Assembly (NCBI GenBank): GCA_013177935.1
Contig: JABLXZ010000004.1
Location: 340,059-404,058 of the forward strand
Direction: 5' to 3'
Source: a candidate division WOR-3 bacterium
GTDB taxonomy: Bacteria; Hydrothermota; Tepidihabitantia; Tepidihabitantales; Tepidihabitantaceae
Length of the DNA: 64,000 bases
The position numbers and the translations under genes are program-made. The notes under the pieces were generated by a model that was not told the DNA's origin, searched no databases, and worked only from the letters and a program-made list of their open reading frames with translations. Position 1 is the first letter of the stretch. The number at the start of each line of letters is the position of its first letter. Positions 12,907-43,790 of this stretch are shown piece by piece.

Positions 12907-12956
12907 CTTTGTAATGACACATCGCCCTTACCATTGCACTCTCAGTTTCTCTATTT

Positions 12957-12985
12957 CTTGACACCTCCACAGTCTCTTATTATCC
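12957..12985 (+). promoter_or_regulatory. sigma70-like promoter of rpmB (TTGACA-17-TATCCT)
   Basis: The 16-mer TTCTTGACACCTCCAC is identical to the pepP promoter -35 region at 54878; RBS AGGAGG follows. Confidence 0.35.
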
Positions 12986-13010
12986 TTTTGAAAACTAAAT
13001 AGGAGGACAC

Positions 13011-13199
13011 TTGGCAAAGCATTGTGAAATATGTGGAAAAGTTGCAATTGTTGGCTCAAACATCAGCCACGCCCATAATGTCACTAAAAGACGCTGGGAG
13101 CCGAACCTTCAGCGGGTTCGCATCAAAGAAGGTACCGCAACCCGGCGCATCTGGGTCTGTACCCGGTGTTTGCGCTCCGGCAAGGTGCAAAAGGCTTGA
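13011..13199 (+). CDS. rpmB: 50S ribosomal protein L28
   Basis: MAKHCEICGKVAIVGSNISHAHNVTKRRWEPNLQ... is the canonical L28 pattern; 62 aa; alternative start codon. Confidence 0.85.
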   Translation: MAKHCEICGKVAIVGSNISHAHNVTKRRWEPNLQRVRIKEGTATRRIWVCTRCLRSGKVQKA

Positions 13200-13365
13200 T
13201 GCCGTTAAACGGACTTCTTGGTCTGGTGTGCCGGTTGACACACTCTGTCCGGTTAAAGGTGTTGCCGACAACTCACACCTGCGACCGTTCGCCCTTCCCA
13301 TTTCTCACTACCCATTCAGCACCCAACAATCTTTCTTCTCCCTTGACGGCGTTACCTCATACTTT

Positions 13366-13404
13366 TTCCCCTCCCTTGAAGGGAAGGCAAAAGGGGGAGG
13401 GTGT
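13366..13404. repeat. 39-bp dispersed element, copy 1 (TTCCCCTCCCTTGAAGGGAAGGCAAAAGGGGGAGGGTGT), internally self-complementary
   Basis: About 80% identical to 16391-16429; it contains CCCTCCC...GGGAGGG arms. Confidence 0.55.
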
Positions 13405-13457
13405 TCTCACCACCCTTGCAGCGCAACCCCGAAACGCACCAACAAAAAGGAGGCTAA

Positions 13458-14411
13458 TTGAACTGTTTAATTACTGGTATTACCGGCTTTGCCGGCAGCC
13501 ATCTGGCTGAATATCTTTTAAGTTTAGGTTCCTGCGAGGTCCACGGAACTATCCGCTGGCGCTCGCGTACCGAAAACATTGAACACCTGAAAGGGAAAAT
13601 CCACCTCCACGACTGTGACCTGCGCGATTCCGGCTCGATTTACCGTTTAATCGCCGATTTGAAACCCGACCGCATCTACCACCTTGCCGCCCAGAGTTAT
13701 GTTCCGATGTCCTGGATTGCACCCCAGGAGACCTTCGTCACCAATGTCATCGGTCAATTGAACATCTTGGAAGCGGTCCGCGCCACCGGCTGCTCCTGCC
13801 GGATTCACATTGCCGGCTCCAGCGAAGAGTACGGTCTGGTTCTGCCCGATGAAACACCAATCAAGGAGACCAATCCTCTGCGCCCCCTTTCCCCTTATGC
13901 AGTGAGTAAAGTGGCTCAGGATTTGATGGGCTACCAGTACCATCAGAGTTACAAGATGCACATCATCCGCACCCGGGGCTTTAACCACACTGGACCAAGA
14001 CGGGGCGTGGTTTTCGTCACATCCAACTTTGCCCGCCAGATTGTTGAAATTGAGAAAGGCAAAAGGGAACCGGTGCTCTATGTTGGTAACCTTGAAGCGG
14101 TTCGGGATTTCACCGATGTTCGAGATACGGTTCGCGCCTACTATCTGATTCTCGAAAAAGGGGTTCCGGGTGAAGTTTACAATGTGGCATCAGGCAGGGG
14201 CTACAAAATTCGCCAGGTCCTTGAAATCCTGCAGAGCCTTTCCACCGCAAAATTTCAGGTTAAACAGGACCCGAACCGGCTCCGGCCCAGTGATGTGGAA
14301 CTCTTAATTGGCGACCCTACAAAGTTAAAGAAGGCGACCGGCTGGGAGCCACAGTACCAGTTTGAACAGACCTTAAAAGACCTGCTCGACTACTGGCGGG
14401 AGCGGGTGTGA
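13458..14411 (+). CDS. gmd: GDP-mannose 4,6-dehydratase-like extended SDR (Gmd family)
   Basis: LITGITGFAGSHLAEYLL (Rossmann), SPYAVSKVAQD (YxxxK), RGFNHTGPRRG and LLIGDPTKLKKATGW parallel the Gmd motifs; TTG start with an AAGGAGG RBS. Confidence 0.55.
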   Translation: MNCLITGITGFAGSHLAEYLLSLGSCEVHGTIRWRSRTENIEHLKGKIHLHDCDLRDSGSIYRLIADLKPDRIYHLAAQSYVPMSWIAPQETFVTNVIGQLNILEAVRATGCSCRIHIAGSSEEYGLVLPDETPIKETNPLRPLSPYAVSKVAQDLMGYQYHQSYKMHIIRTRGFNHTGPRRGVVFVTSNFARQIVEIEKGKREPVLYVGNLEAVRDFTDVRDTVRAYYLILEKGVPGEVYNVASGRGYKIRQVLEILQSLSTAKFQVKQDPNRLRPSDVELLIGDPTKLKKATGWEPQYQFEQTLKDLLDYWRERV

Positions 14412-15328
14412 GGGTCTTTGTCACCGGGATTGAAGGGTTTGTTGGCGCTCATCTTGCTCGCTATCTTCAAGAGCGGGGTGACGAAGTTTACGGTACCCAT
14501 TACGCATCGGTTCAAGAAGAACTGCCCGCAACACTCTTCCCCTGTGACATCAACGACTTCAACGCCATAAAAAGGGCGCTGGAAGAAAGCCGACCTGATT
14601 GGCTCATCCATCTTGCCGGCATCTCATCGGTTGCCGAAGCAGAAAAAAACCCCATACCCACCTACCAGGTCAACACTCTGGGCACCTTAAAACTGCTCAT
14701 TGCTGTGCATCAGCTGATGCTGCCCTGCCGGATTCTCTTAATCTCATCGGCTGATGTTTATGGCAGAGGCGACAAACCCCATTCCGAAACCGACCCACTT
14801 CAACCCCTTACCGCCTATGCCCGGAGCAAATACCTTGCCGAAGAGATTGCCCGGCTCTATTACCAGACCTGGGATATGGACATCGTTATCCTTCGGCCTT
14901 TCAGCCACACCGGTCCGGGTCAGGCAGACCGGTTTGTCTTTGCCCGGGTTGCCAGCCACATCGCTAAGGTTGAGCAGGGCAAAGCCCCACCGATTCTTGA
15001 AATGGGCGACCTCGAAGTCCGCCGCGACTACACCGATGTCCGGGACATCGTCCGTGCTTATATATTCGCGCTGGAAAACTGCCCTGCTGGTGAAACCTAC
15101 AATGTCACATCAGGCAGACCGGTACGGTTGCGGGATGGTGTGGAAATCCTTTTGCGCCTTGCCCGCAAGAATATTGAAATCAGGCAGGGGGTTATTGAGA
15201 AAAGGCCCTATGACATCCCGTTCCTTTCGGGCAACCCCGAAAAGTTTCATCGGGCAACCGGCTGGACCGCGCAAATCCCATTGGAAAAAACCCTCTCCGA
15301 CCTGCTTGAATACTACCGCAGCCGTTGA
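14408..15328 (+). CDS. GDP-4-keto-6-deoxy-D-mannose reductase-like (Rmd/NAD-dependent epimerase family)
   Basis: VFVTGIEGFVGAHLARYL, ISSADVYG, YARSKYLAE, LRPFSHTGPGQ and DYTDVRDIVRAY closely parallel Rmd; 4-nt overlap with the upstream gene. Confidence 0.5.
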   Translation: MRVFVTGIEGFVGAHLARYLQERGDEVYGTHYASVQEELPATLFPCDINDFNAIKRALEESRPDWLIHLAGISSVAEAEKNPIPTYQVNTLGTLKLLIAVHQLMLPCRILLISSADVYGRGDKPHSETDPLQPLTAYARSKYLAEEIARLYYQTWDMDIVILRPFSHTGPGQADRFVFARVASHIAKVEQGKAPPILEMGDLEVRRDYTDVRDIVRAYIFALENCPAGETYNVTSGRPVRLRDGVEILLRLARKNIEIRQGVIEKRPYDIPFLSGNPEKFHRATGWTAQIPLEKTLSDLLEYYRSR

Positions 15329-16197
15329 AACTGTCAGTCATCATCGTCACCTACAACAGCGAATCGGACATCAAGCCCTGCCTTGATGCGCTTATTGCAT
15401 CTCAGCCTGCGGCGGAAGTCATCGTAATTGACAACCTCTCGCAGGACAAAACCCGGGAAATTTTGCAATCTTTTTCTAATATCAAAACCATCCTCAACCC
15501 CAAAAATGTCGGCTATGCCCGCGCCAACAACCAGGGCATCGCCATCGCGCAGGGCGAATACATCCTGCTGCTCAACCCGGACACCGAAGTCCAGCCCGAT
15601 GCGCTTCAACAACTCGTTGACCACCTTGACCGCAACCCGGAATGTGCCGCGGTGGCGCCCCGCCTTTTAAACCCGGACGGCTCCCAGCAACTGTCAATCC
15701 GAGCCTTTCCCACCTTCTCTTCGGTCTTGCTGGAGATGACCAGTCTTCCCCGCCTTTTTCCCCGCTGCCCGCGCCTTAATGCCTGGCGCCTGCGTCACTT
15801 TGACTACGAAAAACCCGGACCGGTAGAGCAACCGATGGCATCCTGCCTTTTAATCCGGCGTTCGGTCCTTATAGAACTGGGCGGGTTCGACGAAAAGTTC
15901 CCCATCTACTACAACGATGTTGACATCATGTACCGGATGGCGCGCAAAGGCTATCAGACCTATTACCTGCCATCCGCCCGGGTTTTTCACAAAATTGGCG
16001 GTAGCACAAACACAATAAAATCAAAAATGATTTACGAAAACCATCGCTCCCTTTTCCGCTTTTTGAAAAAACACACCCCGAAAACCCGCTTCTTGTTTCA
16101 GGCGATTATCCTTTTACCCCTACTCGAAATCTCTGCCCTGATTCGTGCCCTTTACTGGCACCTGCGCGGGTACGCTGGCGACGATAAACAACAATAA
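15325..16197 (+). CDS. Glycosyltransferase family 2 (rhamnosyltransferase-like)
   Basis: LSVIIVTYNSESDI...VIVIDNLSQDKT...LLLNPDTEV and the DxD region; 290 aa. Confidence 0.75.
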   Translation: MKLSVIIVTYNSESDIKPCLDALIASQPAAEVIVIDNLSQDKTREILQSFSNIKTILNPKNVGYARANNQGIAIAQGEYILLLNPDTEVQPDALQQLVDHLDRNPECAAVAPRLLNPDGSQQLSIRAFPTFSSVLLEMTSLPRLFPRCPRLNAWRLRHFDYEKPGPVEQPMASCLLIRRSVLIELGGFDEKFPIYYNDVDIMYRMARKGYQTYYLPSARVFHKIGGSTNTIKSKMIYENHRSLFRFLKKHTPKTRFLFQAIILLPLLEISALIRALYWHLRGYAGDDKQQ

Positions 16198-16231
16198 CCG
16201 CGCAAATGTAAGGGCACTTTGCTACATACCC

Positions 16232-17518
16232 CTACGATAACCGGTCAAAATAGGCTGCCAGCCGCTTTGCCTGCAACCGCCGGTTGTAACGGTCAACCCC
16301 CATCACCCCTGATGAACTCCTCGCCTCTACGCTCCCATTTTCCTCCCTCGTTACTCCTCCCCTTTCCTTTATACCGGCACCCTTCACTCCTTCCCCGCCC
16401 TTGATGGAAGGAGACAAAGGGGAGGGTACTATCTCTCTGATTTCCCGCAGACACCTGACAAAACCCTGCCGGTCCTGACAGACCAGCCCCTGCCCCGTCG
16501 TTTTTACCATTTGCGCCGGCTCTGAATCTTCATCCGCCCAGACAACAATCGGCTTGTAACTGCCTAAATACTCGTACAGTTTCAATCCCACCGGTTGACC
16601 GGGCTTGCCCAGATACAAAAGCGCCTGCGCACCCTTCATCAGGCTTATCGCCCGCTGATGGGAGACAACACCTAAAAACTGGACCTGCGGACTGCTTTCA
16701 AACCGGTGCCTCACCTCTGCGGAAACTCCGCCCGCAATGTAGAGCCGGGCATCAGGCATCTCCCCCAAACCCTGCACAACTTCGCTCAATGTTTGTTCCT
16801 GATGCCACAGATTACCCGCATACAGGATGCTGAAACCATCAAGCGGTTCGGGCTCCACCTTAAAATCGTCCGGGTCAAACCCGTTTTCAAGAACCTCCAC
16901 CCTTTCCCCAACAAGACGGGCAGTTCCTTGATTGACCGCCAGTACCAGTTTTGCCTGATTTAATATCCGCTCTCGCAACCGCAAAAGCCTCCTCTTTTGA
17001 ACCTGGGGTGGCTCTTCAAACCCACCGGGCCAGGGGTCGCGGAAATCAGCCACAAAAGGCAGCCCGCTCCATCGGGAAAGTTTCTCACCTACTATCAACG
17101 CGGTCCAGGGTGGCGCCGATGCGAAAATCACCTGAGGCTTGAATTGGGCAATAACATTCTTACCCGTCCTGACCGCAAATGGCAACCAACCGACCTTGCT
17201 ATCCGGAAAGAAAAGACGACGGAAAACTAACTTAAAGAAGCCTGATTTGCCGGTTTTTTCTGAACCCCCCTTTATCTTTTTCACCCCAACCACTCTTAAC
17301 AACCGATTCGGGTCCAGACTTGCGGTGCGAAATACCTTCGCCTTACTTAAATCGGCAACAAGGTCCGGGTCGTAGGCATAATAGGCAACATCCTTCACCG
17401 TTAAAAGCAGAACCTCCCAGCCAAACTCGGGCAGAAACCTGGTAAGTTTTGTCACCCGCATCACACCGGAAAGCCCGAGCGGCGGTGTGTAGTAGGCGAC
17501 AAAAAGCACCCTTTTCAC
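16232..17518 (-). CDS. Glycosyltransferase family 4 with an unusual low-complexity C-terminal tail
   Basis: N-terminus MKRVLFVAYYTPPLGLSGVMRV and the EX7E-like region are GT4-like. GTG start overlaps the helicase stop (GTGA). The last ~60 aa (PSPLSPSIKGGEGVKGAGIKERGG...) are translated from the 39-bp repeat element. Confidence 0.65.
   Translation of the reverse strand: MKRVLFVAYYTPPLGLSGVMRVTKLTRFLPEFGWEVLLLTVKDVAYYAYDPDLVADLSKAKVFRTASLDPNRLLRVVGVKKIKGGSEKTGKSGFFKLVFRRLFFPDSKVGWLPFAVRTGKNVIAQFKPQVIFASAPPWTALIVGEKLSRWSGLPFVADFRDPWPGGFEEPPQVQKRRLLRLRERILNQAKLVLAVNQGTARLVGERVEVLENGFDPDDFKVEPEPLDGFSILYAGNLWHQEQTLSEVVQGLGEMPDARLYIAGGVSAEVRHRFESSPQVQFLGVVSHQRAISLMKGAQALLYLGKPGQPVGLKLYEYLGSYKPIVVWADEDSEPAQMVKTTGQGLVCQDRQGFVRCLREIREIVPSPLSPSIKGGEGVKGAGIKERGGVTREENGSVEARSSSGVMGVDRYNRRLQAKRLAAYFDRLS
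16391..16429. repeat. 39-bp dispersed element, copy 2 (TTCCCCGCCCTTGATGGAAGGAGACAAAGGGGAGGGTAC), inside the 3' end of the GT4 ORF
   Basis: Alignment with 13366-13404 shares TTCCCC.CCCTTGA.GG.AAGG...AAAGGGG.AGGGT. Confidence 0.55.
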
Positions 17519-19569
17519 CCGCGCTCTCCTGTTTCCCCGTTTTCCCCGGGCAGATGTTCGGTGATTTGTGCCTTCACAACCGCCGGCTCCATCCGCACCA
17601 GTTGAATTGAGTCGAGAAACTCATAAAGCCCGTCAATATCCAGGGTCAACAGGTGGTCTTCAATCTGCAAATCTGGTGGCAAATCCCGGAAAAAAGCACC
17701 CGAACCAAGGCTGTCCTCAAACTCCAGAAGGTGGTCCCGCACCACCCGTTTTACCGCATCCCGTCCCGGTAACGGAAATCGCCCCTCCTGCAACCTTGCC
17801 GCGGGCAGTACCATCACCTTACCCGCCATATCCACCGCCGCCACCCCTTCGGACTGCAACGCCAGAGTTAAAACCCCGCCATAGGTCGCACCGAGAAGAT
17901 GAACCAGATACGCTTGACCACCTTCAAAAAAATACGGGAACTCACCCGACTTCAACCCCGGAAAAATCCTTGACTTTAACACCTCTGCCATCCGGTAAAA
18001 GTACCCGCCGGTTCCGGTTCCTTCAAAAACCTTGGTACTGGGAGATACCGCGCCGTGTGGTCGGACAAAAATTTTCTTATCCTTTTCGCGCCGTTCCACA
18101 ACCTCCCAGGATTTGCCCCCAAGAACAAACCGCTCAAACACAAAGAACACCGAACCAACCTCCTGACCGCTGCTTACATCAACCACCTGATACTGACCAA
18201 AACTCTTCTCCTGAATGTTAGAGTGAACCTTTCCGGTCTCAACCCGGTGTTCTACTTTTGGAGTAAGAAAGTAAACTCCGTTGCCCTTTTCCTGCAAAAT
18301 CCCCTCCCGCACCAGATGGAAAAACACCTTTTCCACCACCGGGCTATTTCCCACCAGCGGTTGAAAAATCCGCCGCACCGCCTCTAACGTTGTGCCGATG
18401 CGCCGGCGCTGAAAACAGTAAGAAATAATCTGCTGGGGCAGAACCGAAAGACAGGGTGTGTACCTCTTATCAAAAAGTTTTCCCTCCCGGGCACAGTCGA
18501 TAAAGGTCTCAAACAAAAGCCGCTCCCAGGGGTCAAGATAAACCCCAATCATATACAGCCCGTTCCCGCGGCGGCGATTGCCCCGGCCGATACGCTGCAA
18601 AAGGGAAGAGACATTAAACGGTGGCCTAAACAGCACCACCGCATCAACATCACCGATGTCAATTCCTAACTCAAGGGTTGAAGTACAGCAGAGGATTCCG
18701 CTCCTTTCTCCGGTCATTCTTGCCTCAACCTCCTCCCGTACCTGCCGGTTCAAACTGGCATGATGGACCCATACCCGGCCGGAAAATGGCGGCAGGTCAA
18801 AAAGCTTCACCCCGCTTTCTGCGAGAGAGCGGGCGTTAAAAAACACCAGCGCCTTGTCACAACCCTGCTCCTGCAGCCGCCTGACAACCCGCCGGTACCA
18901 ATCCTTTTTCCCTGGCAGAAGTTCGGCGTTTATCTCACGGCGCTTTGCCACCTGCACCACCCCGGCACCAGAAAAGTACCGTTCACCCATCAACACATCG
19001 TCAACCGTTGCCGAAAGCGCATAGCCATTAAAATCGGGCTTAATCAACCGTAACCGTTCCAGCAGCACCCGTAACTGGTCACCCCGGGGCGTATTGTCAA
19101 GGAGGTGAATCTCGTCAACAATGACCGCGGTCAGGGTTTTAAAAATCCGTGGATGCCGGCACAAAAGCGAGTCAAACGACTCCGGCGTGGTTAAAAGCAT
19201 AAACGGCAGTCTGCGCTCATCAATCTGCGGGTGGTCACCGGTCTTGCGCTCCAGTTTCAGCCCGAGGTACTCCAGAGGCTCAAGTAGTCGGCGATAAAGG
19301 TCGTTGACCAGCGCCCTGGTCGGTGAAACATACAGAACCGCAAAACCCCTCTTTCCCATCCCGAGCAAACGCTCCACCACCGGTGCCACCACCGCTTCCG
19401 TTTTACCCGATGCCGCGGGCGAAATAACCACCAAATTTTCGCCCCGAAGGATGCGGGGAATCGCCTCAATCTGAACTTCGGTCAATCGGCCAAACCGGGC
19501 AAAAAATGCCGGATAGGTTCGGGGCAGTAGCGCCTTTACCGCCCGCTGCTCTTTTATTTCGTCCTGCAT
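17515..19569 (-). CDS. SF2 DExH-box helicase, Lhr-core-like
   Basis: Motif I ISPAASGKTEAVV, motif II VIVDEIHLL, motif VI QRIGRGNRRRG; 684 aa; no terminal Cys4 cluster (no obvious DUF1998). Confidence 0.7.
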   Translation of the reverse strand: MQDEIKEQRAVKALLPRTYPAFFARFGRLTEVQIEAIPRILRGENLVVISPAASGKTEAVVAPVVERLLGMGKRGFAVLYVSPTRALVNDLYRRLLEPLEYLGLKLERKTGDHPQIDERRLPFMLLTTPESFDSLLCRHPRIFKTLTAVIVDEIHLLDNTPRGDQLRVLLERLRLIKPDFNGYALSATVDDVLMGERYFSGAGVVQVAKRREINAELLPGKKDWYRRVVRRLQEQGCDKALVFFNARSLAESGVKLFDLPPFSGRVWVHHASLNRQVREEVEARMTGERSGILCCTSTLELGIDIGDVDAVVLFRPPFNVSSLLQRIGRGNRRRGNGLYMIGVYLDPWERLLFETFIDCAREGKLFDKRYTPCLSVLPQQIISYCFQRRRIGTTLEAVRRIFQPLVGNSPVVEKVFFHLVREGILQEKGNGVYFLTPKVEHRVETGKVHSNIQEKSFGQYQVVDVSSGQEVGSVFFVFERFVLGGKSWEVVERREKDKKIFVRPHGAVSPSTKVFEGTGTGGYFYRMAEVLKSRIFPGLKSGEFPYFFEGGQAYLVHLLGATYGGVLTLALQSEGVAAVDMAGKVMVLPAARLQEGRFPLPGRDAVKRVVRDHLLEFEDSLGSGAFFRDLPPDLQIEDHLLTLDIDGLYEFLDSIQLVRMEPAVVKAQITEHLPGENGETGERG

Positions 19570-19604
19570 TAATGGTCTTTGCCTGACCGCTGCCGGTCCA
19601 TCTC

Positions 19605-20942
19605 CTAAGCGACCAGTTGCGGCAGAACACCCTGTTTCCGGAGCCGGGCGATGTCCAGCGCCTCAACACAGAATTTGATAAACGCCCGCACCCCGGTGCT
19701 GCTCTGCCGGGCAGCGCTGGCTAAAAGCTGTTTCTGCTCTTCAATCGGCAGTTTGAACCCGGGATAGGCACGCTCGTAAATCCGCACCATCGTGGCGAAC
19801 GCATCTGCCAGCGCCTGGTCTTCAAGCGGTGTCAGGGCAATCCGATGCCGCACCGCATTGGCAAGCCGGATATAGCCATACTCGCCCGGGGTTGGTGTCG
19901 TGGCAAAAATGACGAGAAGTGCCGGGTCCCGATATATGTAGGGCACGGGCCGTACCTGATTGTGAATCAGCCGTTCATTGACCATCTTCAACTCCGGGTC
20001 GTTCTGGGCGCAGCGCACAAGACCGTCCATAAAGTTGACACTCTTGGTCAGATAGACCACATCCCAGAGCCGGGTCACGGTCTCCGCCTCATCAATCAAC
20101 AAAACCAGCCCCTTGAGTCCCAACTCCCGGGCGATACAGGAAATCCCGGTGATGATGTTACAGTAAAAGTCCGCTGCGGTAGAAAAGTCGTAAAGCGCCG
20201 GAATCCCCTGCGCACCCCGCACCCGTGAAGCGGTTGGCATCTCTACCGCATACTCCTTGGTACTCTCACCTTCAATCCACTGCCAGAAAACCTCATTCTC
20301 CGGTGAACCGGTATCAAGCCTTCGCAGTTTGTTCAGCACCGGCCCAAAGAAAATGTGGTCGCTGAAATTCAACTGTGTTGCCGCCCGCAACAAATCCCGA
20401 TACCCGTGCTCCATCCCATCCCTGATATAACGGAGGTTGCGCACCAGTTCCCGGTAAACCCGCTTGGGTCGGTGCGGCGAAACCTCCACCGGGTCAAACT
20501 GGACAAAACTCGCCGCCATCCCTTCCTGCAATGCCCGATGTAAACAGTACTCAAGAAGATGGGTCTTGCCCGTACCGTACTCACCCTCCACCATATAAAC
20601 ATCTCCCCGATTACGGGCAAGGTTCTTGAGCGCATCCTCCAGCGTTTTAACCTCCCGTTCCCGGCCAAAGGTAAAGGTCTCAACATCCTGATGCGGCACA
20701 ATACCCAGGCGGAAAGCCTCAATCATCCGACAGGCGCTCACCCGGTCAATTGCTGCAACACTTGCGGTTGCCGACTCTAGTAAATCGCCGTCAAATTCAA
20801 ACAGAAACCGCACCCGATTGCGCGGCAACCACAACCGCAAACCGGTCTGAAACCGCACCAGCAACTCCGTTCCCTGCCACCGGCTGTCAACAACCTCGCC
20901 TTCCCCGAAGACCGGATGCGACACCAGGTTAGAACTCTTCAC
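19605..20942 (-). CDS. P-loop NTPase (paralog B) with N-terminal Tudor-like HPvFGeGeV domain; possibly BrxD/DUF2791-like
   Basis: Walker A GEYGTGKTHLL (aa ~121), Walker B LVLLIDEAE (aa ~280); N-terminus VSHPVFGEGEVVDSRWQGTELLVRFQTG resembles the UvrD/PcrA C-terminal Tudor-like motif; 14-nt overlap with the upstream paralog. Confidence 0.5.
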   Translation of the reverse strand: MKSSNLVSHPVFGEGEVVDSRWQGTELLVRFQTGLRLWLPRNRVRFLFEFDGDLLESATASVAAIDRVSACRMIEAFRLGIVPHQDVETFTFGREREVKTLEDALKNLARNRGDVYMVEGEYGTGKTHLLEYCLHRALQEGMAASFVQFDPVEVSPHRPKRVYRELVRNLRYIRDGMEHGYRDLLRAATQLNFSDHIFFGPVLNKLRRLDTGSPENEVFWQWIEGESTKEYAVEMPTASRVRGAQGIPALYDFSTAADFYCNIITGISCIARELGLKGLVLLIDEAETVTRLWDVVYLTKSVNFMDGLVRCAQNDPELKMVNERLIHNQVRPVPYIYRDPALLVIFATTPTPGEYGYIRLANAVRHRIALTPLEDQALADAFATMVRIYERAYPGFKLPIEEQKQLLASAARQSSTGVRAFIKFCVEALDIARLRKQGVLPQLVA

Positions 20943-22194
20943 GCTCCACCTTCTCCTGCTCGCTCCGCTCCAGGCGCTGGGTTGTCACCCGCAAAAGTTT
21001 CTCCGCATCCCGCTCGGTCAACACCAACCCCGGATTGGCGCGCACCTGATGCAAAAACTCCACCGCCGCAACAACAAACAACCGCCGGTAACTAACATCA
21101 AGCACAAACCCCCTGACCGCAGTCTCAGCAAGCAGTTTCAAACTCCGCTCCACACCGCTGACCTTTGCCCCGTAAGCGGTCTCAAAAAGGTCAACGAGCC
21201 GCCTGCCCAGTTCCTCCAGAAACGACACCGGCTCAATACCCAACTCCTCTAAGTTAATCCGCACCCCGACCGGATTTGCCTCAGAAAACCCGCTGCGCAA
21301 CCGCTGCTTCAGCGCCTCGTAAACCGGTCCCGAACCCTCCAAAAGCAGATTCTCATCCGGCACCGCATAGAAAAACATCGCTCCGGGCAAACGCGAGTTA
21401 CCGCACTCATCAACCAACTGCCGCAGATTGTCCAGCGCCCGGCGTCGGTCCCTTGACGAAGAGATTGACATCCCCCGCTCCGCCTCATCAAACAGCAAAA
21501 CCACGCCCCGAAACCCAATCGTATGCACCCACTGAATCAAGGAGCGCAGCATCCGGAATGCGGTTGACTTGTCAATCCGCTCGGAAATCTTAAACCGCGC
21601 CCGTGCCTCGCGGGAAATCTCCTCACCCTTAAGCCACTGCACCGCTTCGGTGAACCCGTCAATATCTTCGGCTAACAGGGCGCTGAACGCACCCTTCACC
21701 CCGTTAAAGAAACTGGTTGAGTCCGGCACCGGTAACTGCAACAGATACTCCTGCAACCGCTCTGGCTTGTCCTCCTTACTGCGCCAGGTTGCTGCCCAGT
21801 GCCGAATCACCGCATCAATCCCCTTGTCGGTCAGCGTTGCCAAGCGGCTTGTCTCCTGCGGTGCGGTCAGATTGAGCGCCACCATCTTGTAAACCAGTTC
21901 CAGTTTATCAAACGGACATTCAATCGGCGACAAACTCACATACGCCACACAGTAATTGTGCTTAAACGCCCGGTTGCGCACCGCATAAAGAAAGTGCGTC
22001 TTGCCCCCGCCGTAATTCCCGGTAACCAGTTTAAAACTGGACAGATTGTACTTCAAAATCCCGTTCAGATACTCATCCTCCACCACCTGCAACAGCCGGT
22101 CCAGCCCGACCGTAAACGCCTCAATCCCGAACTCGGGTGGTGTGCCGGTTGAGCCTAATTTATTGATAATTGCCCTTGCCAGTTCTCTATCCAT
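20929..22194 (-). CDS. P-loop NTPase (paralog A); possibly BrxD/DUF2791-like
   Basis: Walker A GNYGGGKTHFLY (aa ~60), Walker B VVLLFDEAE (aa ~232); collinear similarity to 19605..20942 (..A.R.I..LGS.G.P....E.FT.G..). Confidence 0.5.
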   Translation of the reverse strand: MDRELARAIINKLGSTGTPPEFGIEAFTVGLDRLLQVVEDEYLNGILKYNLSSFKLVTGNYGGGKTHFLYAVRNRAFKHNYCVAYVSLSPIECPFDKLELVYKMVALNLTAPQETSRLATLTDKGIDAVIRHWAATWRSKEDKPERLQEYLLQLPVPDSTSFFNGVKGAFSALLAEDIDGFTEAVQWLKGEEISREARARFKISERIDKSTAFRMLRSLIQWVHTIGFRGVVLLFDEAERGMSISSSRDRRRALDNLRQLVDECGNSRLPGAMFFYAVPDENLLLEGSGPVYEALKQRLRSGFSEANPVGVRINLEELGIEPVSFLEELGRRLVDLFETAYGAKVSGVERSLKLLAETAVRGFVLDVSYRRLFVVAAVEFLHQVRANPGLVLTERDAEKLLRVTTQRLERSEQEKVEREEF

Positions 22195-22215
22195 TGCCCG
22201 CTCCTCGCTTAAAAA

Positions 22216-23064
22216 CTACCCGTTGACAAAAGAAATATACGAATAAAAGGTGCCCTCGCCCTCCTCATTATCCGGCACCCACAGCGCCTTTGCCTTCTCC
22301 GCGGTGGCGTCAAAATTTGCCACCGACAGCCGCAACCCCTTGCCGCCAACGGTACGGACACCGGAACGCTTCAAAAGGTACAGGTCGTAACTGAACCGGA
22401 TGCGCGGGTACTCAACAAACCGCTCCCGCACCGGATTCACCCGAAACCCATCCGACTGCATCAAAAACACCATCTCGCCCAGCAAATCCACCAAAAAAAC
22501 CCGCTCCCCTTCCGCCACATTCCGCGCCACACAGACCCGGCGATAGGCGGTAAAAAGCCGCTCCCCAAACTCCGCCGGCTCCTTAATCGCCCGCTTCTTC
22601 AAACTCTCATCATAACTCCGCAACAGTTTTGCCAGCCCCAGCGGCTCCAGTTTCACCCCACCTTTTAGCAACTCAATCTCCGGACCCCAGAAAACGGTTG
22701 CTTTACCTGTGGCAAAGTCTACCCGCACCGAAAACAACCCGCACCGCAAAAACGGCAACTGCCCCTTAACATTCAAACCGCTCCCTTCCAGACCAGCAAG
22801 CAACTGCCTGCCAAACTCAAACTTAAACTCCTCCTTTGCCGCCTCAATCTGCCTCTTCTCCTCATCCAGCCACTGCCGCACCTTATCCCTTACCTCGCCC
22901 GGTGCAAGACCATCAAGTACCTTCTCCACCTCAACCACCAGCCGCTCCCTTTCATACGCATTCCGAACCGGCTCGGCAATCAGCCGGCTATAACCGGCAA
23001 GCAGTTTTGCCACCTTCTGGGACCGCAAAGCGGTATCCTTCAAAACACCAATCAGCCCTTCCAT
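22216..23064 (-). CDS. hypothetical protein (282 aa), first gene of the ATPase/helicase operon
   Basis: No recognisable motif; ATG sits 8 nt downstream of a consensus -10 hexamer. Confidence 0.5.
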   Translation of the reverse strand: MEGLIGVLKDTALRSQKVAKLLAGYSRLIAEPVRNAYERERLVVEVEKVLDGLAPGEVRDKVRQWLDEEKRQIEAAKEEFKFEFGRQLLAGLEGSGLNVKGQLPFLRCGLFSVRVDFATGKATVFWGPEIELLKGGVKLEPLGLAKLLRSYDESLKKRAIKEPAEFGERLFTAYRRVCVARNVAEGERVFLVDLLGEMVFLMQSDGFRVNPVRERFVEYPRIRFSYDLYLLKRSGVRTVGGKGLRLSVANFDATAEKAKALWVPDNEEGEGTFYSYISFVNG

Positions 23065-23072
23065 AATTTATC

Positions 23073-23101
23073 AGTATATTATCCCGACTTTATAATGTCA
23101 A
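23073..23101 (-). promoter_or_regulatory. Consensus sigma70 promoter TTGACA-17-TATACT reading into 23064 (leaderless or near-leaderless mRNA)
   Basis: rc of 23062-23104 = ctgTTGACAttataaagtcgggataaTATACTgataaattATG. Confidence 0.45.
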
Positions 23102-23507
23102 CAGAACAGTACAGACTTCTCGTCCACGAACCATCCGCGCCCCGTTGCGTCAGTTAAACCGAAAAGCGGTTGCCCGCTATTAAATCAATACGAAAAATCA
23201 CCAAAAAGTGACAAAAAACCGTGCCCTGCACAGTCCGGGGGTAATTCCTGGGATAGTCTTCTATGCCCCCTTTCTTACCCATAGCGCGTTAGCACGGAAG
23301 TGAGTCATAACGGTAGTTAGAATCACCCTTTACGATTCTATCTTATTGATAATAAATACTGTTATGTAATATACCCTGCGACCCGATACTTACTGTCGAG
23401 AAAACCGGGCACCACCCTGAGCCGTTTTTACCACCCTTTACCGGTCTATTTCCGTCTTTGTTCCGATGGCTGTTTTCTAATCTGCGTCCACCATTCCTTC
23501 GGGAAAA

Positions 23508-23530
23508 TCTTCACACCGCCTTTCGGCGGT
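23508..23530 (-). terminator. Possible intrinsic terminator hairpin after the T9SS beta-propeller gene
   Basis: ACCGCCTTTCGGCGGT palindrome directly 3' of the stop at 23536; the U-tract is weak. Confidence 0.25.
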
Positions 23531-23535
23531 CCAAC

Positions 23536-25056
23536 TTATTTGACTACAATCAATTTAAGGAAGTTAACCACCTGCTGGGTATTTTGGAGGGGGACGACTT
23601 TAATTAGATAAATTCCCGGCGCGATGCCCGCGGTGTTCAGGAGAAAATCACCTTTTCGAAGATATTCAGAGTGGCTCTTTAGTCGCCTGCCCGTGATATC
23701 AAAGACAGTAAACTGGTAATCTCCCGGTTCATAAACGGCAATCGGAACCGACTGACCACAGTGCACGATTTTTGATTTGAGCGGGTGGGAAAGGTAAGGT
23801 TGCCTTTCTGTCTCTTCAATTCCTGAACCCAGGGAAAGTTTCATTACGAAGAGGTCGAAGTTATAGATGTTATTTCCGCAACCGCCAAAAATATAGCAGT
23901 CGTTCATTCCAAACAGTTCAATGTACCCACCAGAGGTGAGTGTGTCGAATCGATAATAACGGGTAAAGATGGTGTCACCATCCGGGGTGTAGGCAACCAG
24001 CACGCATTTGGAACTGTCAGCGCGAGGACCAGGATAGGGGTCAAAGCCTATGCCACCGGTAGTAAGGATTTTACCTGATGGGTGGACCTTCAATTTGCTA
24101 AAGTTAGATTCGGGCACCTGTTGGGGAAACAACCTCTGCCACAGGAGTTCGCCTGTTGGGCTTACCTTCATCACAATCCCTTGATGGGGAAGAACCGGGT
24201 CTTCACCGGTATCACCAGAAATGTAGATGTAGTTTTCGGTGTCCACTGCAATACCAGTTGACCAATCCTCAAGATTGGCATCAAAACGGCGCCACCAGAT
24301 AATATCGCCATCAGGCGTTAATTTGATTACAAAGAAGTCAAAACTCCATTCGATAAAACTGCCAAATTCACCCGTGCCCACAAGGTTACCATCTCGGTCC
24401 CAAACCAACTCAGCAAACCCTTCGGTGTCGTCGTTGCTGCTCAGGTCGTAATCGCGCACCCAGAGGATGTCTCCTTCTGGAGAAAGTTTCATCAGTAAAA
24501 TTCCGCCCAGCAGTCCGTAGTCGTAGTAATGTCCACCAGCGATGATGTTTTGCGACTCGTCAAACACAACACTTGACAAAACTGTTTGGGGCATATTGTT
24601 AAACCGATAGCGTCTCTGCCACAACAGGTTCCCGGTAGGGTCCAATTTGATTATCAGACCATCAATTGATGAGTCACGATGCGGAAACCTAATAAGCCCA
24701 ACCACGACAATGTTGCCCATCCGGTCAATTGCGACATTAAACACCTCTTCATCATATGCGGTGTCGTCTAAAACCCAGTTCCAGAGGGTGTCGCCTGACG
24801 GACTATATTTTATTAGTAGAATCCCTATATGGTTGAAGGAATCACTGTCCATCGTTGCGGCGACGACGACAGCGTTTCCCAGCGAGTCAACCGCACCTCC
24901 GCTGCAAATGTCAACTCTTCCGGTGTCAAATTCTCTAATCCACACCACATCCTGGGCAAATACCCCACCCGTAATAATGAAGATGACAATTAAAACAAGG
25001 GGCAAGCGGCGTAGAGCCGCTTGCCCCGGATTTCTACTACTCATTGCGCCAAACAT
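23536..25056 (-). CDS. Secreted beta-propeller repeat protein with T9SS C-terminal sorting domain
   Basis: TM/signal LPLVLIVIFIITGGVFA; repeated ...GN.VV.G / ...GD..W units (SBBP-like); C-terminus ...GIYLIKVVPLQNTQQVVNFLKLIVVK. Confidence 0.6.
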   Translation of the reverse strand: MFGAMSSRNPGQAALRRLPLVLIVIFIITGGVFAQDVVWIREFDTGRVDICSGGAVDSLGNAVVVAATMDSDSFNHIGILLIKYSPSGDTLWNWVLDDTAYDEEVFNVAIDRMGNIVVVGLIRFPHRDSSIDGLIIKLDPTGNLLWQRRYRFNNMPQTVLSSVVFDESQNIIAGGHYYDYGLLGGILLMKLSPEGDILWVRDYDLSSNDDTEGFAELVWDRDGNLVGTGEFGSFIEWSFDFFVIKLTPDGDIIWWRRFDANLEDWSTGIAVDTENYIYISGDTGEDPVLPHQGIVMKVSPTGELLWQRLFPQQVPESNFSKLKVHPSGKILTTGGIGFDPYPGPRADSSKCVLVAYTPDGDTIFTRYYRFDTLTSGGYIELFGMNDCYIFGGCGNNIYNFDLFVMKLSLGSGIEETERQPYLSHPLKSKIVHCGQSVPIAVYEPGDYQFTVFDITGRRLKSHSEYLRKGDFLLNTAGIAPGIYLIKVVPLQNTQQVVNFLKLIVVK

Positions 25057-25664
25057 CGGTCTCCTTAGCCGGTGTTTCTCTCACCCACCAGTGCCAGCCG
25101 TGTTGATTCCAGGTATATTGGGAATTTATGCTGTGGCCTGTGTCCCACCACACAAGGACAGAGTCACCCTGCGTGGTTGTGGCTTCAGCGGTTTGTATGG
25201 AAAGAAGTTGAGAAGTATCTCCCCACGCAAACTTTCTGTATCTCCCCCTCACCTTGCAATAACCCTCGGTTGGCCTTATCGTTTTGGAACCGCGATTGAT
25301 ACGTCTCTTCACATAAGGGCGCTGGGGATCTGGGTAGATTAAAATCCAGGATATCGCCTTGTAGCCCGAGTGGTCTACTATGTTAGTAGAAATGTTAGAA
25401 GGATTTGCCTGTGCCAGTTGTTCAGTCGCTGTTAGATAACCCGCCGCGTGGAATTCGTCCAGTGTCATCTCTTGAAAGTCGAGACCATCGGCTTGTATAA
25501 CGGTGGAGTCTGGTTCTCCGTAAACCTCAACGACGCAGACACCTTCTTCATCATCATCGGTAAACTCGGCAACATAGTATCGTGCGGTGCTGGTTCCCTG
25601 TGCTACCAGCAATAGGGGGGGGGGCAAAAAGCAGGGTCAGGATGATGTTTTTGAGGTTGCCCAT
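25037..25664 (-). CDS. Secreted hypothetical protein; signal-peptide codons are out of frame with the body because of a G10/C10 homopolymer (phase-variable candidate or frameshift error)
   Basis: GGAGG-6nt-ATG at 25664 gives MGNLKNIILTLLFAPPP..., then stops after 36 codons; the long ORF (TTG 25627.. MPPPLLLVAQGTSTARYY...) is in the other frame. Removing one C (9 instead of 10) fuses them: MGNLKNIILTLLFAPPLLLVAQG... Confidence 0.5.
25615..25624. repeat. G10 homopolymeric tract (C10 on the coding strand)
   Basis: aataGGGGGGGGGGcaaaaag. Confidence 0.8.
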
Positions 25665-25781
25665 AAAAGACCTCCTTTATTTAACCTCGACCAACTATAA
25701 CAAATATTAACCATTTTGTCAAGAAACGGAATTTGCTCCTGTTGCGGCGGGGTACCTTATCAGAGTATGTTGTAGCCGGTA

Positions 25782-25810
25782 TTGACAGTTTGTTTATCAT
25801 TGACTTTTAT
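25782..25810 (+). promoter_or_regulatory. Putative sigma70-like promoter for the tRNA-Ser pair (TTGACA-17-TTTTAT)
   Basis: Sits in an AT-rich segment ~70 nt upstream of tRNA-Ser. Confidence 0.3.
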
Positions 25811-25877
25811 TAAATCTGATTTAGAGTATTAAGAAGTAGTCAGGCGCTTTATTGAGGCTGCTGAAGAACTGACACCA

Positions 25878-25964
25878 GGAGGGCTAGCCTAACTGGTAAG
25901 GCAGCAGACTTGAAATCTGCCGACCCTTCAACGGGTCTTGCGGGTTCGAATCCTGCGCCCTCCG
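25878..25964 (+). tRNA. tRNA-Ser (anticodon TGA), type II with long variable arm; no encoded CCA
   Basis: Acceptor GGAGGGC/GCCCTCC+G; anticodon stem GCAGA/TCTGC with loop CTTGAAA; T-loop TTCGAAT. Confidence 0.85.
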
Positions 25965-25980
25965 TAGTAAGGATAGAGCA

Positions 25981-26018
25981 GAAGCGCAGTAGCGGGATAG
26001 AGCAGAAGGCCAGAAGTA
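25981..26018. repeat. Two 24-nt-spaced direct repeats GGATAGAGCAGAAG between the tRNA-Ser genes (same family as the 46790-46948 array, opposite orientation)
   Basis: GGATAGAGCAGAAGCGCAGTAGCG / GGATAGAGCAGAAGGCCAGAAGTA, compared with rc of the array unit GAGAGAGCAGAAGAGCAGAAGCCG. Confidence 0.5.
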
Positions 26019-26065
26019 ATGTCCGACCGGAACGCTTTTCTGCTACTGACTTTTACGCAAATCTG

Positions 26066-26153
26066 GAGAGGTGGCCGAGCGGCTGAAGGCAACCGCTTGC
26101 TAAGCGGTTATACGGCTAACCCCGTATCAAGGGTTCGAATCCCTTCCTCTCCG
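26066..26153 (+). tRNA. tRNA-Ser (anticodon GCT), type II
   Basis: GGAGAGGTGGCCGAGCGGCTGAAGGCA D-arm typical of tRNA-Ser; anticodon loop TTGCTAA; T-loop TTCGAAT; acceptor CCTCTCC+G. Confidence 0.85.
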
Positions 26154-26239
26154 TTTAACAACGCTCCCTTTTGCCCGCTTGTGCTAAAAACAGATGGGCA
26201 GGGGAAAATAATTTGACGATAACTCAATAACATTTAACT

Positions 26240-27817
26240 ATGAATAACGAGCCGGTGCGCGTCCGTATTGCCCCTTCACCAACCGGTGCGATGCACCTTG
26301 GTCTTGCCCGCACCGCCCTTTACAACTATCTGTTTGCCCGTCAGCACCAGGGTGTGTTCATCCTGCGGATTGACGACACCGACCAGGTGCGCAATCAGGC
26401 GGAGATGCTTGAGCCCATCCTTGATGGCTTGCGCTGGCTCGGGCTGGAATGGGACGAAGGTCCAGAAAAGGGCGGACCTTACGAACCCTACTACCAGTCG
26501 CAACGGAGCGCAATCTATCAGGCGGCGGTGGAAAAACTGCTTGCCTGTGGTGCCGCCTATCTTGACTACGCCACGCCAGAAGAGATCGCTGCGGAACGGG
26601 AGCAGGCGCGGCAACGGGGCGAGACCTTTCGCTATAGCCGGCGCTGGATGGCAGAAACCGCAGAACAAAAGGCAAGTTTTGAAGCCCAGGGTAGAAAGCC
26701 GGTAGTCCGTTTGAAGATGCCCCAATCGGGCACAATGGTGATTGAAGACCTGATTCGCGGCCGGGTGGAGTTTGACCTTGCCCTGGAACAGGACCACATC
26801 ATCCAGCGTCAGGACGGCACATTCCTTTACCATCTGACCAGCGCAGTTGACGACGGCGAGATGAAAATCAGCCACATCATCCGCGCCGAAGAGCACCTTT
26901 CCAACACCCCGCGCCAGGTTTTTATCCTTCAGGCGCTCGGCTATCCTTTGCCCCGCTTTGCCCATCTGCCGTTTGTTGCGGAACCGGGCAGTAAGAACAA
27001 GTTGAGCAAGCGCCGGCTCAAGGAGTACCTGAAGCGTGCCGAGTTCAAGGAGTTGATGACCAAAGGCGAACTGATTGCCCGGCGTTTGAACCTGAGCACC
27101 AGCCCGGATTTGTTAAATCCGGTGGTGATTGACTTCTACGAAAAGATTGGATTTCTACCCGAAGCGCTTCTTAACTACCTTGCCCTTTTAGGCTGGGCAC
27201 TGGACGACCGCACCGAATACTTCACTAAAGAGGAACTCATCCGCTCCTTTTCCCTTGACCGGGTCAATCGGGCGCCGGCAAGTTTTGACCCGCAAAAACT
27301 GCTCGCATTCCAGGTCCATTATATGATGCAACTGCCTGTGGCAAAAAGGGTGGAACTGGTCCTGCCCTATCTGATAAAAGCCGGACTAATAAAGGAGCCG
27401 GTTGCACCGGAAATTCAGGAGATGGTTGGTGCAATCGTCCAGGCTGCGGGTGACCGCATCAAGGTTGCGGGCGACATCCTTGAATACGACTACTTCTTCC
27501 TGCCCGATGAGCAACTAACTCTTGACCCGAAGGCAGTAAAGCGCTGGGTCGCACCCGAAGGACAAAAGGCGCTGCTTGCCGAGTTTGAAGCCGCGCTGAC
27601 CGAAATCCTCAACTTCACCAAGCCGGTAATTGAGTCGCTTGTTGCCCAGCTTGCCGCGGCAACAAACACCAAGCCGATGGCGGTCAGTCAGGCGCTACGG
27701 GCCGCTTTGACCGGAAAGGATTACGGATTTGCAATTGCCGACTGTGTGATGATTCTTGGCAGAGACCGGGTCCGTAACCGAATTCGCCGGGCACTAACCG
27801 TGGCGCAACAAACTTAA
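26240..27817 (+). CDS. gltX: Glutamate--tRNA ligase
   Basis: RIAPSPTGAMHLG (HIGH-class motif) and KLSKR; 525 aa. Confidence 0.9.
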   Translation: MNNEPVRVRIAPSPTGAMHLGLARTALYNYLFARQHQGVFILRIDDTDQVRNQAEMLEPILDGLRWLGLEWDEGPEKGGPYEPYYQSQRSAIYQAAVEKLLACGAAYLDYATPEEIAAEREQARQRGETFRYSRRWMAETAEQKASFEAQGRKPVVRLKMPQSGTMVIEDLIRGRVEFDLALEQDHIIQRQDGTFLYHLTSAVDDGEMKISHIIRAEEHLSNTPRQVFILQALGYPLPRFAHLPFVAEPGSKNKLSKRRLKEYLKRAEFKELMTKGELIARRLNLSTSPDLLNPVVIDFYEKIGFLPEALLNYLALLGWALDDRTEYFTKEELIRSFSLDRVNRAPASFDPQKLLAFQVHYMMQLPVAKRVELVLPYLIKAGLIKEPVAPEIQEMVGAIVQAAGDRIKVAGDILEYDYFFLPDEQLTLDPKAVKRWVAPEGQKALLAEFEAALTEILNFTKPVIESLVAQLAAATNTKPMAVSQALRAALTGKDYGFAIADCVMILGRDRVRNRIRRALTVAQQT

Positions 27818-43711: not shown

Positions 43712-43790
43712 CGCAATTACCTAACTTCTTAACTCCTCTCCCCCTGCAAAACTCTGACGCCTTTGAGATTACTCCAGAGAATCAAGTAGT
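43712..43790. repeat. Duplicated 3' flank (copy B), including the last codons (LLDSLE*) of the TPR-only gene
   Basis: See 39617-39695. Confidence 0.7.

Follow-up and report, generated by a model that had tools for sequence, protein, structure and literature searches.

A run of 10 cytosines in the signal-peptide coding region of a gene for a small, putatively secreted protein is probably a hypermutable simple sequence repeat (SSR) that acts as a translational phase-variation switch, that is, as a contingency locus, in a candidate division WOR-3 bacterium. We describe this tract in a 64,000-nucleotide stretch of a metagenome-assembled genome (MAG; assembly GCA_013177935.1, contig JABLXZ010000004.1, positions 340,059 to 404,058). 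We refer to the whole stretch as the window and number positions from its first letter. The tract separates a leader from a protein body in another frame, and its length is polymorphic among strains and species. The body is under purifying selection, and the gene is paired with a downstream beta-propeller gene. From this combination we infer that the tract switches reversibly and at high frequency within populations.

In the proposed mechanism, slipped-strand mispairing during replication would add cytosines to the tract or remove them. With C9 or C12, the promoter, the Shine-Dalgarno sequence, and the ATG at 25664 would drive synthesis of a 207-aa protein exported by the Sec pathway (ON). With C10, as assembled here, or with C7, C8, or C11, ribosomes would halt after 36 or 19 codons, and the exported protein would not be made (OFF). 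The OFF state would probably also lower expression of the beta-propeller gene through polarity or attenuation, since the two genes overlap, their pairing is constant, and a hairpin lies just after the stop of the small gene. Such a polar effect on the second gene is plausible. The selective agent is plausibly the recognition of the surface module by phages or grazers, because these bacteria are environmental.

The split gene and its reading frames

Positions 25615-25624 read G10 on the plus strand and C10 on the minus strand, which is the coding strand. The elements of the small gene are the following.

25694..25722, minus strand: sigma-70-like promoter, TTGACA, 17-nt spacer, and TG-n-TATAGT (extended -10), with 11 of 12 consensus matches
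25671..25677, minus strand: Shine-Dalgarno sequence AAGGAGG, 6 nt 5' of the ATG at 25664-25662
25554..25664, minus strand: start codon and N-terminus of the signal peptide; in the C10 state, a truncated open reading frame (ORF) of 36 codons that gives the OFF product (ORF reading)
25615..25624, minus strand: poly-C tract C10, the proposed hypermutable switch (outlier among runs in the window; comparison with 18 related loci)
25037..25627, minus strand: body of the predicted secreted protein, 196 codons from TTG 25627 to the stop at 25037 (ORF reading)

A strong promoter, a Shine-Dalgarno sequence, and an ATG all precede the tract and are conserved in related loci. The promoter (25722-25694) is the top-scoring site in 23300-26300 and lies about 30 nt 5' of the ATG; comparable TTGAC...TATAAT motifs stand 5' of the orthologues in loci L013, L014, and L004. 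AGGAGG precedes the ATG in nearly all related loci, with the variant ATGAGG in L005 and L011.

The 36-codon ORF starts at ATG 25664 with MGNLKNIILTLLFAPPPIAGS, reads into the C10 as MGNLKNIILTLLFAPPP, and terminates at 25554. The body is in the +1 frame relative to this leader, and in that frame a TGA lies five codons 5' of the tract, which leaves the body without a signal peptide of its own. Its mature part begins at about VAQG/TSTA (25606) and comprises 189 residues (VAQGTSTARYY...WRNE) that are beta-rich. Removal of one C joins leader and body into a 207-aa fusion starting MGNLKNIILTLLFAPPLLLVAQGTSTARYY. In the window sequence the frame is thus restored by C9 or C12 and lost with C10, C7, C8, or C11; the C10 product is 36 aa long, and that of the C8-type frame 19 aa. 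An earlier note on this DNA had reported the G10 run behind a strong Shine-Dalgarno sequence and ATG, the end of the reading frame after 36 codons, the 196-codon body in another frame, and the 207-aa secreted protein produced by C9. Our reading of the sequence and its ORFs, and removal of one C, bear out all of these claims.

By inspection, the ON-frame N-terminus has a basic residue, a hydrophobic stretch, and AQG; we call the signal peptide from this residue pattern and from the N-termini of homologues. In locus L004 (protein P0005), the equivalent N-terminus is in frame with the body and reads MSNIKNIILTLLFTPPLLLVAQG. An internal start was considered as the source of a secreted product from the OFF allele and rejected: the only starts are TTG 25627 and 25612, and neither gives a signal peptide. 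The body corresponds to NCBI protein HPY86_08305, from a candidate division WOR-3 MAG, annotated from the internal TTG as 191 aa. In the assemblies seen, annotators split or truncate the gene in this manner, and such genes are therefore systematically mis-called.

The tract is an outlier in its surroundings. It is the sole G/C run longer than 7 in the window, where the next longest are G5 and C7. Runs of lengths 3 to 7 number 1514, 344, 45, 4, and 1, a drop of about 6.8-fold per extra base, and extrapolation of this empirical decay predicts about 0.003 runs of at least 10 bases in 64 kb. The empirical decay replaced a first-order Markov chance model (0.57 expected runs of 10 or more) that over-predicts runs of 6 to 7 by 8-10 fold and is thus miscalibrated. 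CCC makes up 29% of the proline codons in the genes of the window, and CCC-CCC occurs in 0 of 42 Pro-Pro pairs of its other genes. No other long ORF in the 64-kb window seems broken at a homopolymer. On the sequence comparison described below, the strongest argument against chance is the presence of a pure poly-C at the same codon position in 18 related loci. As to composition, the base fractions of the whole window are 0.307 for C and 0.232 for G, and the plus strand has an excess of C over G across 10000-23000 (GC skew -0.05 to -0.39) regardless of gene strand.

Tract length and selection in related loci

Relatives were gathered by protein and profile searches, contig look-ups, and scans of metagenome and genome collections, and the tract was read from the DNA, with one consensus sequence per sample. 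This yielded 18 related tract-bearing loci from independent metagenomes and MAGs (L001-L009 and L011-L019) and two more distant family loci (L010 and L020). Exact-match look-ups of the 36-aa leader product of the window and of protein P0001 returned no further contigs. Tract lengths and frame states are as follows.

Window: C10, OFF
L001: C7, OFF
L002: C8, OFF
L003: C9, OFF
L004: C8, ON; further lesions in the body
L005: C8, ON
L006: C9, OFF
L007: C9, OFF
L008: C10, OFF
L009: C9, OFF
L011: C8, ON
L012: C6, OFF; another WOR-3 MAG, further lesions
L013: C7, ON
L014: C6, OFF; GCG precedes the tract
L015: C7, OFF
L016, L017, and L018: C8, OFF; identical sequence in three samples
L019: C5, ON

Across the 19 loci, window included, C5 occurs once, C6 twice, C7 three times, C8 seven times, C9 four times, and C10 twice. 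Five loci are ON and 14 are OFF. The OFF alleles fall in both wrong frames: 10 need the equivalent of a one-nucleotide loss, and four need a gain. When near-identical copies are collapsed, 5 of 15 loci are ON, and this third is the value that free drift of tract length among the three frames would produce.

The position of the tract is kept across orthologues down to about 37-40% protein identity, with lengths of 5 to 10 and all three frames represented. The tract is pure in 18 of the 19 loci although synonymous divergence (dS) between clades is at least 1.7, so that synonymous sites are saturated. The earlier note had called for a comparison of tract length in relatives and had named orthologues without the homopolymer as evidence against a switch. 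The comparison reveals tracts of 5 to 10 at the same codon position in 18 loci, and within the clade no orthologue lacks the homopolymer. Only distant family members (L010/P0007, P0009, P0014-16, and most of the 81 clusters of the family) are without it, and these have ordinary signal peptides at the same position; the tract is thus a feature of one clade.

Length also varies at short evolutionary distances. Loci L003, L005, L006, and L007, obtained in four different projects, share 99.5-99.75% identity across 3,633 aligned nt, and their sole internal indel is the tract: C8 (ON) in L005 and C9 (OFF) in the other three. Where DNA identity is 88%, tracts differ too: 10, 7, and 8 cytosines in the window, L001, and L002, and 8 and 6 in L004 and L012. 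Loci L016-18 represent the same strain from three samples; they are 100% identical, and all have C8. The repetition of C8 in three assemblies of one strain indicates that tract length is reproducible in assembly, unlike a random homopolymer error. Two further G runs were seen near these genes: a G7 upstream of the true ATG, in the 5' region of L016-18 (at about 568 in L016 and L017, at 88 in L018), and a G8 about 160 nt upstream of the gene in L019 (position 41).

OFF alleles retain full-length bodies. We compared these bodies by the ratio of nonsynonymous to synonymous substitution rates (dN/dS). Among the window, L001, and L002, all OFF, the ratio is 0.25-0.40 for the body and 0.27-0.37 for the downstream gene, which is intact. 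The ratio drops to 0.18 for L015 against L016 (both OFF, dS 1.4) and 0.12 for L013 against L014 (ON against OFF). In the window lineage, the tract is the single lesion in the gene. Intact bodies, purifying selection, and a pure tract together indicate that the gene is kept functional and that the tract itself is maintained. This signature reads as that of a contingency locus and is a poor fit to a dead pseudogene or a one-off error.

We accordingly reject a dead pseudogene in the window lineage, given the dN/dS and the integrity of the ORF, and accept one at two other loci. L012 (3001-3620) combines a C6 OFF tract with a GGA-to-TGA nonsense change and a 4-nt ATAT insertion; L004 (749-1325) is in frame at the tract, yet has two 1-nt deletions in the body.

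Competing explanations and known systems

These lesions raise a broader alternative, in which the gene is relaxed or decaying and dispensable, the poly-C is a mere mutational hot spot, and the OFF alleles are recent pseudogenes. In its favor are the 14 of 19 loci that are out of frame, the additional nonsense codon, 4-nt insertion, and 1-nt deletions in L012 and L004, and the GC content of the two-gene module, which at 0.46-0.49 lies below the 0.53-0.57 of its flanks (window 23000-26000). We nonetheless consider it improbable. Bodies of OFF alleles remain full length in four separate lineages, and their dN/dS of 0.12-0.40 equals that of the intact neighbor at dS up to 1.4. An unselected hot spot should gain interrupting substitutions, whereas this tract is pure in 18 of 19 loci despite saturated dS and a non-preferred codon. 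Finally, the ON fraction sits at the neutral one-third with no trend to zero.

The DNA frameshift might instead be compensated by recoding, either through slippage of RNA polymerase on the C/G run or through a +1 slip of tRNA-Pro on CCC-CCC-CCC-C aided by poly-proline stalling. CCC-C is a +1-prone site, and Pro-Pro-Pro stalls ribosomes in the absence of EF-P. Moreover, 10 of the 14 OFF loci need a one-base loss, which is equivalent to a +1 shift, and purifying selection on OFF bodies is predicted by recoding too. Against this, an obligatory shift would mis-decode the in-frame alleles L004, L005, L011, L013, and L019, and OFF alleles exist in both wrong frames, those of L002, L008, and L016-18 requiring a shift in the other direction. 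Just after the tract there is no conserved 0-frame stop or slow codon; termination comes 3 to 20 codons on, depending on the locus. An Rfam scan of 23000-26400 matched only two tRNAs. The well-documented cases of bacterial transcriptional slippage are on A/T runs (PMC1088944, PMC3711429). Genes with programmed +1 frameshifting or transcriptional realignment, such as prfB, dnaX, and insertion sequence (IS) elements, do share with the WOR-3 gene a conserved frame transition at a slippery homopolymer and a downstream frame under purifying selection (PMC3711429, PMC1088944). They differ in having a fixed site and direction in all orthologues together with stimulatory signals, whereas the WOR-3 orthologues are in frame, +1, or -1 without pattern, and their tract length varies. 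A fixed programmed frameshift is rejected, as the orthologues occupy all three frames and a conserved stop or stimulator after the tract was not found. Compensation by recoding strikes us as unlikely.

It is very improbable that a homopolymer sequencing or assembly error conceals a true C9 in a gene that is ordinary and intact. The window does come from a MAG, and long runs of G/C are prone to such errors. Its 64 kb, however, hold no other homopolymer-linked frameshift or G/C run above 7. In 13 further loci, from unrelated projects and assemblers, the frame is likewise lost at precisely this tract, and C8 recurs in three assemblies of one strain. A window count off by one would still leave a length-variable tract. 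The earlier note had offered a switch and a sequencing error as the two possibilities. The conserved length-variable tract, the sole indel among near-identical loci, the reproducible C8, and the selected OFF bodies favor the switch.

Several points weigh against phase variation at this tract. The C10 count of the window itself could be off by one base. The comparison of consensus sequences reveals raised indel turnover on evolutionary time scales, which is not a measured switching rate, and the shared C8 OFF state of L016-18 illustrates that one state can be stable and dominant. Slippage of RNA polymerase, or a +1 slip of the ribosome on CCC-C, may allow low-level expression of OFF alleles. 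In the L004/L012 lineage the small gene is decaying, so that long-term loss also occurs. In addition, the small protein has no assigned function, which leaves the selective rationale conjectural.

A phase-variation switch at this tract would have close counterparts elsewhere. For phase-variable genes in Neisseria, PhasomeIt applies a poly-G/C cut-off of 9 or more, and a G7 is known to switch in siaD (PMC5953494). The C10 exceeds the cut-off of 9, which places the tract in the hypermutable length range. The classical contingency loci, poly-G/C tracts in surface genes of Neisseria, Campylobacter, and Haemophilus, share with the WOR-3 locus a 5' intragenic repeat in a secreted or surface gene (a predicted one in WOR-3), a frame set by repeat length, lengths that differ between close strains, homologues without the tract, and possibly several paralogous modules. 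Repeats inside signal-peptide coding regions are represented by CTCTT in Neisseria opa and by the CT repeats of Helicobacter pylori oipA. Classical loci belong to pathogens and commensals under immune pressure, whereas the WOR-3 lineage is known only from metagenomes and MAGs. The window contains one such tract in 64 kb.

The nearest likeness in architecture is found in Bifidobacterium breve UCC2003, whose sortase-dependent pilus clusters (bbr_0113a/b and bbr_1889a/b) carry an experimentally verified ON/OFF switch based on replication slippage in a G tract. Once the frame is restored there, both the protein and the genes 3' of it are expressed, and the OFF state is transcriptionally polar (PMC9187656). 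In both organisms a Sec-signal ORF and a body ORF are split by a G/C tract in the first gene of a surface-structure operon (a putative one in WOR-3), a strong promoter and Shine-Dalgarno sequence precede the upstream ORF only, and the reference genome is OFF. B. breve, however, is a gut commensal of the Actinobacteria with sortase/LPXTG pili and an experimentally verified switch. The WOR-3 bacterium is uncultured and belongs to the Fibrobacteres-Chlorobi-Bacteroidetes (FCB) group; its 207-aa protein is unrelated, its partner is a propeller of the type IX secretion system (T9SS) type, and the support is purely comparative.

SSR-mediated translational phase variation in a signal-peptide region is a known phenomenon; the new elements are an environmental candidate phylum, an uncharacterized protein family with a T9SS-type cargo, and support from independent metagenome assemblies. 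Work on phase variation by SSR slippage has dealt almost wholly with pathogens and host commensals, and the WOR-3 locus is a well-supported candidate from an uncultured environmental phylum. A 2025 review describes knowledge of phase variation as centered on pathogens, with other environments as a gap (PMC11868660). Our literature search found no report linking WOR-3 to phase variation or T9SS. The locus suggests that bet-hedging on surface or secreted modules also takes place in environmental communities, where the pressure is likely to come from phages and not from antibodies.

The two-gene module and its genomic neighborhood

The second gene of the module and its junction with the first comprise three further features.

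23536..25056, minus strand: SBBP/delta-60 beta-propeller protein, 506 aa; signal peptide; C-terminal tail resembling a T9SS type A sorting domain (profile scans)
25061..25066, minus strand: Shine-Dalgarno sequence AAGGAG of the propeller gene, 4 nt 5' of ATG 25056
24999..25027, minus strand: 12-bp GC-rich hairpin followed by TTGTTTTAATT, terminator-like (terminator scan; free energy, dG, -30.2; z -6.4)

The propeller gene (23536-25056) overlaps the small gene by 20 nt, as the earlier note had described, and its Shine-Dalgarno sequence at 25061-25066 lies within the conserved "AKETD" codons at the C-terminal end of the small gene. A propeller gene of about 480-510 aa and of the SBBP/delta-60 type follows the small gene in every locus long enough, usually overlapping it, and the distant L020 also has a delta-60 propeller downstream. 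Co-transcription of the two genes is plausible because of the 20-nt overlap and the conserved pairing. The label of T9SS cargo that the earlier note gave to the propeller finds partial support. The tail of the window copy scores 20.5 bits against a cut-off of 23 (TIGR04183, Por_Secre_tail) and 16 against 27 (Pfam), below both, whereas sorting domains pass in the orthologues of L003 (30.6 bits), L009 (32.2), L011 (31.2), and L008 (35.3). No T9SS component was found among the scanned genes of the 64-kb window.

The hairpin (25027-24999) begins 10 nt after the stop of the small gene, within the signal-peptide codons of the propeller gene. Hairpins with different stem sequences occupy the equivalent position in L003 (about 710-745), L008 (about 3611-3642), and L011 (about 2298-2331). 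In all, four divergent module types have a GC-rich hairpin of 12-14 bp with z of -5 to -7, located 10-35 nt after the small gene's stop. It lies within propeller signal-peptide codons in three types and is followed by a T run in the window type only; it is absent in L009 and L013-L016. The hairpin may be an attenuator or a coupling element.

The modules are mosaic. In L003, L005, L007, L009, and L011, the 5' 230 nt or so, which cover the promoter, the signal peptide, the tract, and about the first 50 codons, show 90-95% identity between modules that are otherwise highly diverged. Propellers of the L007 and L009 types have a near-identical C-terminal domain (CTD) end over the last ~30 codons. 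Compared with its 99.7%-identical relatives, L003 has a cluster of L009-like substitutions in the signal-peptide codons. The mosaic pattern suggests gene conversion or cassette exchange. A fragment of about 240 nt, 87% identical to the 3' part of the L008 propeller gene (4574-4812), lies upstream of the small gene in L005 (5-243) and L007 (2612-2850); it may be what is left of a tandem module once present there, or of a rearrangement. A second tandem module was looked for upstream of L007, where only this propeller 3' fragment is present.

We tentatively raise the possibility, which we hold to be rather less likely than not to be correct in full, that the tract is the switch of a larger variation system. 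Such a system would consist of paralogous two-gene surface modules, each pairing a small secreted protein of new fold with a T9SS beta-propeller and having its own poly-C switch. Highly diverged middles would be flanked by a shared, recombining 5' cassette, which runs from the promoter through the signal peptide and the tract to about codon 50, and by a conserved CTD end on the 3' side, and the junction hairpin would couple the second gene to translation of the first. If true, an uncultured environmental phylum would possess a combined phase- and antigenic-variation system, with phages or predators, rather than immunity, as the presumed driver.

The small protein matched no family in Pfam or NCBIfam scans. 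Its own family comprises 81 clusters at 50% identity among 1.84 billion representatives. An AlphaFold2 model from a 14-sequence alignment is confident and beta-rich (predicted local distance difference test, pLDDT, 89.8; predicted template modeling score, pTM, 0.86), and a Foldseek search of this model against PDB and BFVD gave no significant neighbor. The model has very long beta-hairpins (window 25040-25606). Many distant members (P0014-P0058) end in an aromatic W or Y, and members of the poly-C clade end in ...WRNE or ...WREEP.

Two tRNA-Ser genes with UGA and GCU anticodons (window 25878-25964 and 26064-26154, plus strand) lie directly upstream of the module in divergent orientation, and the module may be part of an island beside these tRNA genes. 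Directly downstream of the propeller gene is a candidate anti-phage cluster on the minus strand (window 16232-23064). It encodes a 282-aa protein without a family, a pair of BrxD/SngB-like ATPases of 421 and 445 aa, and a 684-aa DEAD helicase that is BrxHI/SngC-like; a GT4 glycosyltransferase comes next. By its gene content, it is a candidate for a system resembling Shango or a bacteriophage exclusion (BREX) accessory system; PADLOC was run on the neighboring genes only. Farther away, the minus strand encodes two giant tetratricopeptide repeat (TPR) proteins: one of 1289 aa, which combines an nSTAND NTPase-5 domain with about 24 TPR repeats (window 39758-43627), and one of 733 aa, with about 20 TPR repeats (window 43769-45970).

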